Shown here: in pieces, positions 3,001 through 9,000 of the stretch
How the letters are laid out: each line of letters starts with the position of its first letter
Numbering within the stretch: the stretch's first letter is position 1
Virus record (IMG/VR): IMGVR_UViG_2537561992_000036
Source of the DNA: a virus
Lineage: Duplodnaviria; Heunggongvirae; Uroviricota; Caudoviricetes
Length of the DNA stretch: 24,178 bases
Reading direction: 5' to 3' (one strand)
Program-made: the position numbers

Positions 3001-6000
3001 GCGTCATGGGGAGCGCCGAAGTGATGACCATAGATATTCTTTTTCAGGCCACATGCGATTGAGGCAAGAGTTGCGCTACTGATGCCAACATCGCCAGTCG
3101 ATTGCCATTTCAAAACCTTCATAGACAAATCTGACATTTCTTGTCTCCAATAAAAAAAACCTCCATCAGGCGGCTTGGTGTTCTTTCAGTTCTTCAATTC
3201 GAATATTGGTTACGTCTGCATGTGCTATCTGCGCCCATATCATCCAGTGGTCATAGCAGTCATTGATGTTCTCTGCTTCGATAACTCTGTTGAATGGTTC
3301 TCCATTCCATTCACCTGTGACTCGGAAGTGCATTTATCATCTCCATAAAACAAAATCCGCCGTAGCGAGTTCAGATAAAAGAAATCCCCGCGAGTGCGAG
3401 GATTGTTATTCATTGCCGATATTCACCTTTATCGCGAACACCTTTACCGGTTTATCACCGAAGTGCGGATGTGTGATTGTCTTGATTTCATATCCGTCAT
3501 ACGGAACATCAATTCTGCGGCTGGAATCGTCGCGCTTCGGATATCCCTTTGTGATAATCAGGCGGTCATACTCCCGGAACATAATTCGCTTATTCCAATA
3601 GTCATTACACAGGCGATACTCTTCCGTTTTCTCTCCTCGAATCATGGCATCGAAGTATTCACCTTTGACGGCAAGTTGTAGGTTAGCCACGGTTAACCTC
3701 CTGCGGAGTAGCCTTTACAAGCACTGGTGCAAATCCATCTTCATTAAGGTTATGAATATAGACTTCTGTTCTCCTGCGCTCTTCAACGTTTAATATTGTT
3801 TCTGGATCATAAACCCATACTTTCATTCGACTATTCCATGAAGAAATCGCTTCAGATCTAGTTCGTTTTTCTGGTCCTTGGGCACCACATTTGCATGACA
3901 CATAGCGCATTTTCCCTCTGATACTGAATGAGTATCCGATGTTAAGCACAGTGGAACCACAGAATGGGCAGCGATATAGATTCATAAATCATCCACCTTA
4001 GGCGCAGCTGAGACAGCAACATTCCAGAACTCAGAAAACATATTGTATGCACCAGATAGATTGGAAGTAGCATACCCTCCAAGCTCACTTCTAATCTGAA
4101 CGGCTCTCATCATTTCCGGGGTTAACTCCTTCGGCACCATAACCCAACCATCCGGAGTTACCGGAGAGTTGCCACCGGGAATATTTTCCGGAATATTTTG
4201 TTGTGCGTTTTGTGGTTGTTCTGATTTACCCTGAAGCATGGCGGCGCGGCAGGCGTTCCAGCCAGCTGTTCGCCCAAGCGCGTAAACTTCAGATGGATCA
4301 AGATAATCAATGTCATGCCCGTCCTCATCGTCGTTCTCAGGTAATGCAGCAGGTACTACCGGTACTGGCGGAGCGGCGTAGACCTCAATAATTCCATTAT
4401 CAATAGGCCATTCTCCATCCTTGAGGTAGTCACTTGTGCCGTCAACTTGCTGTTCTGCAATGTGGAATGCACCTATTGGTTTTGCTTCCAGCGATGCCAG
4501 AGCAATCCGTGCCAGTTCCATTTGTTCGCCACTAGTAAGTCCGTTATCAAGCGGGGATTTAATGAACAATTCGATACGTTCTTTAGTGATAGTGCTCATA
4601 TCACTCTCCTTTGATGCGAATGCCAGCTGCGCTTGCTGATTCTTCATATGCGCGTTTAGCAGCGTTAAGGATTGCTGCCAGTGGCGTATAGCCGCCATCC
4701 ATTCGGATTGTGTTGTGGATGCCAGCCATTGTGTCGCGCAATTTGCTGTGGCTAGCAGACAGTTCTGCTATGCACTTCTCTGCGGCATCGGCTCGATCTT
4801 TTTCACGCTGGAACATTTTGTGAGTGCGGTCTATAGCTTCGATTCGTGCCGCTGATGTCTTCTGCACGGCTTCAAGCTCAACACGCAGCTTCCCAACCGT
4901 AAGAGCAATATCCTCGTTCTTCTGGTCGCGGCGTTTGATGTATTGCTGGTTTCTTTCCCGTTCATCCAGTAGTGCCAGCACGGTTTCTGGCCCGGTCAGA
5001 AATTTGAAGGCGTTGAGCGCATCAATATCCACACCGTAATCCTTAAGTTCCTGTTCAGTTAACAAATCATCATCAACTGGCAACATTAACAGGCGTTCCA
5101 TTGCCGGAATTGCACGCTCTGCCGCCTCACGCAGTGCCTGATAGTCAATCTTGCTCATTGGATGACTCCTTTACGAAGCTGTTCGGCGATATCTTCGAGA
5201 ACGCCATCAGAGAATGAACGGTCAAAATCGCCTTCCGGCGCATTGGCCATAAACTCAGTAGAGGTAAGAATCATCCGGGCAATATCAGCGGCGTTCTTCG
5301 CAGTATCATCAATAAAACCAGCTTCCCAGGCAGCCAGCATTCTGTTCGCCACAAAGTAAGCGCCCTCCTTGCGTGCTTCAGTCTTCACTTCAGCCAGAAA
5401 AGCATCGGTGGCTGGGGTTTCAGTAATATCATCTTCCCATTCGCTAAACTCCTCACGACAAAAGTCATTAAATTCCTTCTCAGATTGCTTAAGCGAGGAA
5501 TTTTCAGCAGCCATCTTCGCGCATTTAGCCTCAAGGTTATCAATCGTGATTCCAGCAGAACGACACTCCCGCAACGCCGTTTCTAGTTTTGATTCAAGTT
5601 CACCGAACTTACGGACAAGATATTCATCGTTTGTTTCGTCAACCTTTAAATCACTTGGGATGCATTTACCTTTCAGAAAACCATCCATCTCAATTAGTGT
5701 CATTTGTTTCATTTCTTCCCACTCCGCCACATCGCATTCAGATATTTGTTGTCATTAACAGAACCGAAACTCTTTCTCTTAAGCAATTCCTCTCTCGATG
5801 GCATTGGCTTTGCGCGTTGGCGAATAATCATTTCTGCCGGAAGAATGCCGGGATTGTATGCAAGTCCTCTCATGGTAAATTCCTCAGTCATTACTGATAG
5901 CGCCATAGCGTGAGCGGTAATTACGCAGGCGCGGGTCAATTTCAGGGAAGTGGGTATATGTGGCTTTGCGGAATGGTCGGATTGATGTCTGGTAAATTCG

Positions 6001-9000
6001 CTCGCGTTCTTCTTTCTCTGCAAGCCATATACAATGGCGAAATTCCTTTTCCTCTTTCGTTTCCTGCGGTAGCGACATTATCCGATCGTAGTTTTTTCTG
6101 AATTTATCCAGCACCTCCGATACGGAATTGCCGGAACAGCGGCGCGCGTCATCCGCACCATACAGAGGCGCTGGCATAATTAAATCCTTATTTTTCTAAA
6201 TCAGAATGGGATGGAATCGTCGTATACAGGAGTGTTCTGCTGGTTACTACTTTGCTGCTGCGGGCCATTTCCTGAAGCTGCAAATCCAATCTTTGCATTC
6301 AGTAATTCAAGAGTGATTGATTGACCATTTTGCCCCTGATAAACATCAACCCTGATGTTTTCTCCGGTAATTTCCACAATGCCACCTTCAACAAGAACAC
6401 TACGGTAGTAATCCGCTTGCGCTCCCGGCTTGGCAAATACAACGGCGCTGTAGTTTGTCCATTCTTTCTTTTTTGTCTGGCGATCGTAATACTGAACGCC
6501 AGCACGGATGTTGAATCCGATATTTTCCCCGGTCTGAAACTCTCTTGCGGGCTTGTTTAGTCTTACAGTAATCGAATGTGCCATTAAGCAGCAGCTCCTT
6601 CTAATTCGTCTCGTCTGATGTTGTAAACGTCCTGCGCTTTGTGCTGCTCCGGTGTGCCTTCGAGCATCTTCCACGCTTTGGCGAACGCCTGTTTAAGCTC
6701 TTCTACGGTGTTTTTCTGCATTGCTGCGTCAGTGAATGCTTTTAGAACCTGTTCAGGTGTAGGTGATGGTTTTGATTGCTTTGCTGCTGCGTTCTGCTGA
6801 TGTTTATGCTCGTCGGTATCTGCATCTTTCGCATCATCAATGCCGAATAAACCATTGAGGCAATACTTGCGTGCATAAGAGCTTGTAGCTCCCGTAACTT
6901 GTGCAGAATCCATTCCTTTCTTGCTTTCTTCCTCTCGTGCAAGAGCGGTTGCCGTATGACTGTTTTCGCCATCGGTAATAGTTGCCGTGGCTTTCACATA
7001 ATACCGATCACCAATCAACACAACTTCATCGCTGATTGATAAAAACAGGCCATTCAGTAACGGCTTAACGCCTTCAAGAATATCTTCGCAGCTTCTGTAT
7101 TTATATTTGCCGAATGAGTTGTACTGATTCTTTGGCGCGTTCAGATTCTCCTGAATAGCTGCCAGTCTTGCGTAAAATTCTTTGCTCATATGATTGTTCT
7201 CAGAATGGACACGGCCCAAGGAAATAACGCTGATTTAATACTTCGACTCGGGACAAATTAAGGCATACCCGCATTCCTTCGCGGTCACCATTATGGCGAT
7301 ACCAGAGAGCTTTCTGCGTGTACATGCGCCTCTGTAACTTGCTCTCCTTCACTGTGGTTGCAAGTGACATGAATATCTCCTTCGTTACCGATTAATTCTT
7401 TCATCTGACGAATGAATTCTTCGTCTGACCAGTTATCTGTAAAACTCATTTCCTGCGATAACACGGAAGGTTGATAGCTGATTTCATCGCTTTATTTGCT
7501 TCAAGCCACATTTTTGAATCACCAATAAATCGGGCTATTACTGCCTTGTTCTGTGCAGCACGAAGCATCTGGTGATTGATGGCTATTTCATTGCGCATAA
7601 TAAGACCTCAACTCTTTTCCATCCGTCACGTAATTTACGGGTGATTCGTTCAAGTAAAGATTCATTTAATTGGAAGGCACCCATGCGAGCGCCTCCCGCG
7701 ATTGCGTAAATCATGGGTGGTTCCTTATGTTGGTTTTATTAGTAGGTTATTTTTGTTGCGAATAATTCGCCTTTTACGATGGCTGTTATGATATTTTTAG
7801 CAACATCTTCTGATGCGCCAACCTTGATAAGGTCAGCAAGTATTTTGTTATTTACTTCTTTCCGGTGAGCTTTATCCTTTGCTCTACGCTCTTCTTCGTC
7901 CTTGATTCTTTTTTCTTCTGCTATTCTGGCTTGCTCTTTTGCTTCAGCCTCGCGCAGGATTCGTTCTGCCTCCTCCTGTGCTTTACGGCGTTCTGCTTCA
8001 ATTGCCGCATGCTTTTCTCTTTCAGCTCGTTCTGCTGCCTCTTTTGCTTCGCGCTGTGCTCGTTGCTCGGCTTCAATGCGTTCACGCTCTGCACGTTCCT
8101 CTGCGGCCTTAGCTTCTGCTTCTCGCCTTGCTGCTGCTTCAATTTCGGCTTTTGCCTTTGCTTCGGCTTCAGCTCTGGCTTTCTCTTCAGCTTCTCTTTT
8201 TAAGCGTTCTTCATGCTCTCGCTTTTCCTGCTCCGCTTTGAGTCTTGCCTCTTCTCTTTGGCGGTCAAATTCGCGATCCATCAAAATCGCTATTTCATGG
8301 TCAGACTCAATTTGCTTTGCGAGAGCTTCAGCTGCTGCCTTAGCTTCTTCTTCGGCTTTAATCCGCGCCTGTTCTTCCTCATAATCAGTAAGAGGCTGGC
8401 GCGCCTTGGCTTTCAGTTCATCAAGGCGATCGCGCACTGTCTTGCGGTTAGCATCAATTAGCTTTGGAATTTCCTTCAGTTCAGCAACAAGGTCTTTGCC
8501 AAGACCATCGAGATATGTTTTCGTCTGCGCAACTTTATACGCCAGATAAGCGATCTCCTTTCTGCCCTTTGCCGTTGTGATATCAGGCACAAAGGACATA
8601 ACTTCACGTTCAACCTTTTGAAGAATTTCTTCAATCTGGTCGGCAGACTAAATTACAGTCATTGCATTTGCTTTTTCAATAACAACTAAATCTGTTACTT
8701 CACTCATATATCCTCCGTCAAAAAAATTGCCCTCACACTGGAGGGCAAAGAAGATTTCCAATAATCAGAACAAGTCGGCTCCTGTTTAGTTACGAGCGAC
8801 ATTGCTCCGTGTATTCACTCGTTGGAATGAATACACAGTGCAGTGTTTATTCGTATGCCTGTCTTTTAACCACATCAGGCTCGGTGGTTCTCGTGTACCC
8901 CTACAGCGAGAAATCGGATAAACTCTATTCACCCCTACAGAGAGAATGATGGAGATTCACCGATGAGTAACTGGTGGCAGGAACTATTACGTTTCTTCCT

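Follow-up and report, generated by a model that had tools for sequence, protein, structure and literature searches.

The segment between the Lar-like gene and the Erf/SSB-like module of an Escherichia coli prophage: Abc2, DUF2737 and the shuffled EaE/Oad2-, Ea22- and EaA-type proteins

The closest described counterparts of the gene block analysed here, positions 3982–6177 of the 24 178-nt Caudoviricetes virus record IMGVR_UViG_2537561992_000036 (the whole of which we call the window), are found in phages P22, HK446 and HK75. The P22 genes run in the order erf, abc1, abc2, orf56 and eaE, with eaD and eaA further on before xis and int, and those of HK446 in the order gp33, Erf, gp31, Abc2, gp29, gp28 (DUF2737), gp27 (Oad2) and xis, a layout shared by HK75. 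Abc2 binds the RecC domains that recognize Chi, near the latch helix and the alternative single-stranded DNA exit, without inhibiting the RecBCD helicase, and host PpiB co-purifies with it, Pro68 being modelled in the PpiB active site (PMC9836394, eLife 2022). Oad2 binds and inhibits the P2 OLD nuclease, an abortive-infection tRNase that is activated when RecBCD is compromised, and Gp33 of HK75 and HK446 is sufficient to trigger OLD and is a possible new RecBCD inhibitor (bioRxiv 10.64898/2026.07.10.737580, a preprint of July 2026). The same study related Oad2 to P22 EaE and found no OLD inhibition by the HK75 homologue, which is 54% identical to Oad2. Ea22 consists of a short N-terminal part, a coiled coil and an exchangeable C-terminal domain, forms a tetramer and has a pro-lysogenic effect (PMC10834534); its deletion speeds induction and raises phage yield (PMC10834534, PMC7093339).

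We found that 3982–6177 is filled by five consecutive open reading frames (ORFs), all on the minus strand. The interval is very probably the accessory ('ea') segment in the early-left (pL-type) operon of a lambda/P22-type temperate phage, directly behind an Erf/SSB-like module, and its genes are already catalogued: Abc2 and the heavily shuffled phage families DUF2737, EaE/Oad2-like, Ea22-like and EaA-like. In transcription order the operon encodes Gp33-like, Erf, SSB-like, Abc2, DUF2737, EaE/Oad2-like, Ea22-like, Eaa, Lar and ASCH proteins (Table 1). The gene starts were chosen by Shine-Dalgarno sequence, homologue starts and the calls of the Prokaryotic Genome Annotation Pipeline (PGAP). The first-pass annotation had described four unknown proteins here without a recognizable motif, but strong Pfam matches were obtained for three of the five products (PF11043, PF10930 and PF13935) and PHROG families for all five, and the names given by PGAP and UniRef were phage anti-RecBCD protein, DUF2737 family protein, ead/Ea22-like family protein and Eaa protein. 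The NCBIfam search named Lar only, and PADLOC returned coiled-coil noise only.

The 97-aa protein is Abc2, as identified by its profile and structure-database matches. It matched PF11043 (Anti-RecBCD_p2) from end to end (residues 1–97 on profile positions 1–97; 5.6e-63, 209.6 bits against a cut-off of 25), PHROG 656 'abc2 anti-RecBCD' at 7.7e-55 and PDB 8B1T/8B1U with an E-value of 2.8e-57. Identity to P22 Abc2 is 93%, and Pro68 is kept; of the seven substitutions relative to the RefSeq P22 Abc2, only P11A, L32R and A65S fall within the ordered residues 3–66 that contact RecC and PpiB. As in P22, it is 97 aa long, lies behind erf and is followed by the orf56/DUF2737 gene, and it is encoded on the same strand as Erf, as in P22, HK446 and HK75. 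The median ratio of nonsynonymous to synonymous substitution rates (dN/dS) was 0.07 over 62 sequence pairs from related loci. The suggestion, made from position, that this protein might act against RecBCD was thus borne out in the form of Abc2 itself. By homology to the solved complex, it would bind RecC of the host RecBCD at the Chi-recognition domains while leaving the helicase unblocked, and RecBCD reprogrammed in this way would deliver processed DNA ends usable by the phage Erf and not by host RecA.

The upstream neighbour of abc2 in the window is an SSB-like gene, in contrast to abc1 in P22. Its 127-aa product matched PHROG 44 SSB at 2e-28 and is 95% identical to HK446 gp31. Its C-terminal tail (...YDDSIPF) resembles bacterial SSB tips, and a Pfam search gave no match. 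A relationship to P22 Abc1 was considered and rejected, as there was no similarity.

The gene downstream of abc2 encodes a 54-aa DUF2737 protein (PF10930, 97.8 bits against a cut-off of 25) that is 72% identical to the product of P22 orf56, which directly follows abc2, and 96% identical to HK446 gp28; its dN/dS was 0.41. The gene had initially been taken to encode 60 aa, but that version would start at an ATG at 5891 without a Shine-Dalgarno sequence, whereas the ATG at 5873 is preceded at 7 nt by GAGGA and agrees with the P22 orf56 start and the PGAP call. Met1 of the 54-aa version corresponds to residue 7 of the 60-aa version, and it is there that the Pfam match starts; the 54-aa product was found on at least 1000 contigs compared with 16 for the 60-aa product, all of which disfavours the longer form. 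We then examined 160 related IMG/VR loci retrieved by searching with Abc2 or DUF2737. DUF2737 was downstream of Abc2 in all 79 evaluable Abc2 loci and directly adjoined it in 62; in 16 a single small gene was inserted between the two, as in HK446, and in one the gap was slightly larger. Five loci carried DUF2737 without Abc2, and in one of them (L041) it followed a RecT-type module; a sixth carried an Abc2 remnant only. A 96-aa gene (HK446 gp29; locus L164, 3715–4005; Sf6 gene 24-like) was located between abc2 and DUF2737 in 23 IMG/VR loci, about one-fifth, and the window has no gp29-type gene.

The next protein (185 aa) belongs, to judge from its alignments, to the EaE/Oad2 family. Its architecture comprises a conserved N-terminal segment and coiled coil, the ETPATDAFLAEV joint and a P22-EaE-type C-terminal domain. 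Residues 60–183 (the C-terminal 124) are 77% identical to P22 EaE, and the order abc2, orf56, eaE is the same in both phages; the N-terminal ∼60 residues, unlike those of P22 EaE, are of the HK97 gp37/Oad2 type. Residues 1–135 are 61% identical to Oad2 and residues 1–113 are 80.5% identical to HK75 gp28, the first ∼75 residues being nearly identical to both. The protein further resembles Oad2 in its location directly after DUF2737 with an ATGA overlap, its ETPATDAFLAEV motif and its QLRKG tail. In a four-way alignment, a common scaffold (N-terminal segment, helix, ETPATDAFLAEV and QLRKG tail) carried three different inserts and C-terminal domains; this alignment and tblastn placed the end of similarity at about residue 135 of Oad2, whose middle insert and C-terminal domain are absent from the window protein. 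The protein matched PHROG 614 at 1.4e-80 and gave weak coiled-coil-type Pfam matches at residues 36–108.

The first-pass label 'Ea22-like' was apparently attached to this gene, one gene too far upstream, since PF13935 (Ead_Ea22) and the similarity to lambda Ea22 fall on the downstream gene, which also encodes 185 aa. The latter product matched PF13935 at 8.9e-30 (104.5 bits against a cut-off of 27, residues 2–131) and shares with lambda Ea22 the N-terminus, a near-identical core (LLDERERNQQYIKRRDQ.NEDIALTVGKLRVEL) and the tail AGIRIKGE; the core is also common to P22 EaD. These matches identify it as a true Ea22 homologue, and the exact product was found on at least 1000 contigs under the name ead/Ea22-like. 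No similarity to the lambda-type C-terminal domain, the structure of which was solved by nuclear magnetic resonance, was detected beyond the core save in the last eight residues, nor any PDB sequence match. Published Stx-phage Ea22 variants likewise have no lambda-type C-terminal domain, and the window protein has the same three-part architecture as lambda and Stx-phage Ea22.

The 205-aa Eaa protein combines an EaA-type N-terminus, a conserved middle, a GNSPVTPDGW joint and a variable C-terminal domain. Residues 1–80 are 54% identical to P22 EaA, with much higher similarity in the N-terminal ∼40 residues, and P22 EaA shares the joint as GNSPV.P.GW. P22 EaA is 317 aa long, and the window protein differs from it in having no DUF551 and in its last 100 residues, which are Sf6-like: residues 105–205 share 78% identity with a reading frame of Sf6 that bears the label ead/Ea22-like. 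Close homologues keep residues 31–122 and the GNSPVTPDGW joint but have swapped C-terminal domains, among them DUF551 (PF04448). Eaa itself belongs to PHROG 60 and gave no Pfam match even at a permissive E ≤ 5, including none to PF04448, and its exact product was found on 998 contigs with the UniRef name 'Eaa protein'. P22 EaD was rejected as a relative of this protein. PDB sequence searches with the Ea22-like, EaE-like and Eaa proteins returned chance coiled-coil or short matches only, and literature searches on the functions of DUF2737, DUF551 and EaA found nothing functional.

The EaE-like, Ea22-like and Eaa proteins thus share a design of scaffold plus exchangeable domain within one operon behind the recombination genes. 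Across the 160 loci, a fixed core of recombinase, Abc2 and DUF2737 was followed by highly variable Ea genes, and similarity to the window broke inside genes at recurring positions, often at residue 43 or 113 in the EaE-like protein, at about 96–100 in the Ea22-like protein and at 54 or 100 in Eaa. The joint between the Ea22-like and Eaa genes contains the end of the Ea22 tail (IKGE), the stop codon, the Shine-Dalgarno sequence AAGGAG and the start of the next gene. The 22-mer ATCAAAGGAGAGTGATATGAGC at this joint was found in 37 distinct contexts among the 160 loci, with 12 sequence clusters upstream and 17 downstream. Since this 22-base joint recurs with many partners on both sides, we regard the stop/start junctions as conserved joints for module exchange, and their conservation also preserves ribosome-binding sites. 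Similar conserved tails were observed elsewhere, namely QLRKG..Q in EaE-type proteins and PQEVNRG at the end of Lar and some Eaa homologues. Taken together, the conserved tails and joints suggest a set of boundary sequences for module exchange.

The genes had been described as a chain coupled by ATGA or TAATG overlaps. Three ATGA overlaps are real (5709–5712, 5155–5158 and 3982–3985, the last between the Eaa stop and the Lar start), but a TAATG overlap between abc2 and the following gene requires the discarded ATG at 5891, and the Ea22-like/Eaa junction is TGAtATG with a 1-nt spacer (4599–4601). The remaining spacers are 23 nt before abc2, where the upstream Shine-Dalgarno sequence is TAAGGA, and 10 nt before the 54-aa DUF2737 start; the Erf/SSB-like junction is TAATG, and Lar and ASCH overlap by 8 nt. 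The Shine-Dalgarno sequence of every downstream gene sits within the 3' end of the gene upstream of it. Two longer forms were also rejected: a 238-aa Eaa, which has no Shine-Dalgarno sequence, would overlap the Ea22-like gene by 98 nt, disagrees with homologues beginning M(S/T)TIT and is absent from a collection of 15 billion proteins, and a 191-aa EaE-like protein with a GTG start, dropped in favour of the ATG at 5712 used by PGAP, HK446 and HK75. According to the PGAP coordinates, at least seven more four-base overlaps exist in the right operon and lysis genes of the same prophage (O/P, P/ren, NinB/NinE, DUF1364/RusA, RusA/NinH, NinH/Q' and lysozyme/lysis). As such overlaps are common elsewhere in the prophage, we regard the chain as a normal, tightly packed phage operon, the junctions of which would permit coupled translation. 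A pattern scan of the minus strand detected no promoter-like site inside the chain, in keeping with a single transcription unit, and two terminator-like hairpins, one within the EaE-like gene and the other 3' of the ASCH gene. No Rfam RNA family was detected within 3982–6177.

The window is 99.9% identical to E. coli chromosomes and begins with ybhC, which indicates a prophage at the lambda attachment site. At 3600–6700 lies a 3.1-kb block that occurs with 100% identity in four records of Stx1a-converting phages (LC744181-4) as well as in chromosomes of E. coli O26, O103 and related strains; the same block is present in fuller phage records. The prophage itself is defective: sieB is cut by an IS3-family element directly followed by cII, a second, inverted IS3-family copy lies further along, and the O gene is frameshifted; both IS3-family copies carry ALIL frameshift pseudoknots. 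As for the neighbouring genes, the Gp33-like protein upstream of erf is 87–90% identical to Gp33 of HK446 and HK75 except that its last few residues are unlike both, and in PGAP the 100-aa Lar ORF appears as two pieces, a partial Lar and a 47-aa hypothetical protein. Beyond the ASCH gene is a 55-aa ORF identical to lambda orf55, and two further frames were noted. One is long, rich in E, A, K and R and flanked by cIII and the sieB remnant; its PGAP annotation is a TolA-like cell-envelope protein with an internal stop. The other is a cargo gene between the nin region and Q, which encodes an LpxR-family lipid A deacylase on the opposite strand.

Table 1. Positions in the window of the genes of the early-left segment, in transcription order, and of other features named in the text
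Feature	Position	Strand	Details
Gp33-like	7291–7449	-	52 aa; HK75/HK446 Gp33 homologue
Erf	6584–7189	-	201 aa; PF04404 at 2.4e-44; PGAP 'ERF family protein'; single-strand annealing protein
SSB-like	6201–6584	-	127 aa; = HK446 Gp31; P22 abc1 position
Abc2	5884–6177	-	97 aa; anti-RecBCD protein 2
DUF2737	5709–5873	-	54 aa; P22 orf56 homologue
EaE/Oad2-like	5155–5712	-	185 aa
Ead/Ea22-like	4601–5158	-	185 aa
Eaa	3982–4599	-	205 aa
Lar-like restriction alleviation	3683–3985	-	100 aa; PF14354 and TIGR03655, residues 2–54
ASCH	3406–3690	-	94 aa
orf55-like ORF	3166–3333	-	55 aa; 100% identical to lambda orf55 (lambdap35), located between xis and ea8.5 in lambda
22-base joint	4596–4617	-	Ea22-like/Eaa junction
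Terminator-like hairpin	5338–5317	-	within the EaE-like gene
Terminator-like hairpin	3404–3383	-	3' of the ASCH gene
Block shared with Stx1a-converting phages	3600–6700		3.1 kb
E/A/K/R-rich frame	7739–8707	-	PGAP: TolA-like, internal stop
sieB remnant and IS3-family element	8962–10449		
IS3-family element	9236–10449	+	cuts sieB
ALIL frameshift pseudoknot	9517–9633		in the first IS3-family copy
IS3-family element, second copy	14164–15377		inverted
ALIL frameshift pseudoknot	14980–15096		in the second IS3-family copy
LpxR-family lipid A deacylase gene	17568–18527	-	cargo gene

As to function, each of the three Ea proteins joins a short conserved N-terminal segment and a coiled coil, probably driving oligomerization, to an exchangeable C-terminal domain that, we infer, binds a host or defence protein. 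The segment would then be an early host-takeover and counter-defence set acting alongside Lar (restriction alleviation), its short overlaps and near-overlaps sitting in the conserved joints at which phages swap modules. Several observations weigh against this picture. The EaE-like protein has neither the Oad2-specific insert nor the C-terminal domain that tell active Oad2 from the inactive HK75 homologue, and over residues 1–113 it is closer to inactive HK75 gp28 (80.5%) than to Oad2 (61%), which makes anti-OLD activity of this copy unlikely. AlphaFold2 models were too poor for fold assignment (mean pLDDT, the predicted local distance difference test score, 39.7 for Eaa and 45.7 for the EaE-like protein), the alignments behind them being shallow (16 rows for Eaa) and their homologues the best 120, which were near-identical. 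The immunity region and pL are missing, with N, pL, cI and cro unannotated in the window, so the chain probably has no native promoter in this copy and its expression here is doubtful. Finally, three genes (Ea22-like, Eaa and Lar) carry an 'incomplete' flag in PGAP. Those flags, which in two genomes report a missing C-terminus, would fit a reading of the Ea22-like and Eaa frames as decaying gene fragments, as would the defects of the prophage (the IS3 insertions, the frameshifted O and the lost immunity region). The ORFs are nevertheless uninterrupted, abut or overlap their neighbours exactly and have AAGGAG-type Shine-Dalgarno sequences. The dN/dS was 0.07–0.41 across the genes of the chain and 0.2–0.4 segment by segment, from which we conclude that the frames are under purifying selection. 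All five exact products were found on about 1000 or more public contigs, including identical full-length products in Stx1a-converting phage records, and where a C-terminus seems to be missing, the C-terminal module has been swapped, as it has in published Ea22 variants. With intact ORFs, purifying selection and abundant identical products to counter them, the flags are probably an artefact of C-terminal modules that differ from the reference proteins, and decay is very improbable.

The other explanations concern what the proteins do. That four novel motif-less proteins are encoded here, the 97-aa one being a candidate new anti-RecBCD factor by position, is scarcely tenable: the position behind erf and ssb is correct, but all of the proteins have strong matches to named families and the 97-aa protein matches a solved structure. 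DUF2737 might instead serve Abc2 as a dedicated partner and be a second anti-RecBCD component that replaces the missing Abc1, given its location downstream of Abc2 in all 79 evaluable loci as well as in P22, HK446 and HK75 and the absence of P22 abc1 from the window. This linkage may reflect shared ancestry only, as the sampled loci are close relatives (at least 89% identical), and it is broken in the five loci without Abc2 (one of them behind a RecT-type module) and the sixth with a remnant. The pair is, moreover, separated by another gene in 16 Abc2 loci (with a larger gap in one more) and in seven DUF2737 loci, published structures show Abc2 bound to RecBCD without DUF2737, and P22 has abc1 and orf56 together, so we consider a partnership quite unlikely and take DUF2737 to be the conserved gene that opens the ea segment, not a proven partner of Abc2. 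The Ea proteins could also tune the lysis-lysogeny decision, as described for lambda and Stx-phage Ea22 and for the exo-xis region, rather than act as counter-defence adaptors. The window does encode a true Ea22 homologue, ea22 deletion alters induction and yield as cited above, and the genes are in the earliest pL transcript; on the other hand, among these families here, a biochemical target is defined for one member only, the OLD inhibitor Oad2. The two roles are compatible, in that blocking an abortive-infection sensor would also alter the outcome of infection, and we regard lysis-lysogeny control in place of counter-defence as possible but on balance doubtful. In a more specific form of the counter-defence reading, the Ea chain would be an island placed behind genes that tamper with RecBCD (Gp33-like and Abc2), with three Ea proteins directed at different targets and their specificity changed by swapping at the joints. 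The EaE-like protein may then be an Oad2-family inhibitor whose P22-EaE-type domain is aimed at another abortive-infection sensor guarding RecBCD or recombination, and an OLD, Gabija or retron-type system may serve as an example of such targets. This version is speculative, and we would rather expect it to fail than to hold.

Hundreds of E. coli genomes carry annotations of the block and the mechanism of Abc2 is solved, so that as it stands the finding has little significance. Its value is that of a map: a common block of Stx1a phages and O26/O103 prophages carries a homologue of the reported OLD trigger, Abc2 and a gene of the Oad2 family whose C-terminal domain is of another type. Given the defined target of Oad2, the C-terminal modules of EaE, Ea22 and Eaa type are reasonable candidates for new anti-defence specificities.

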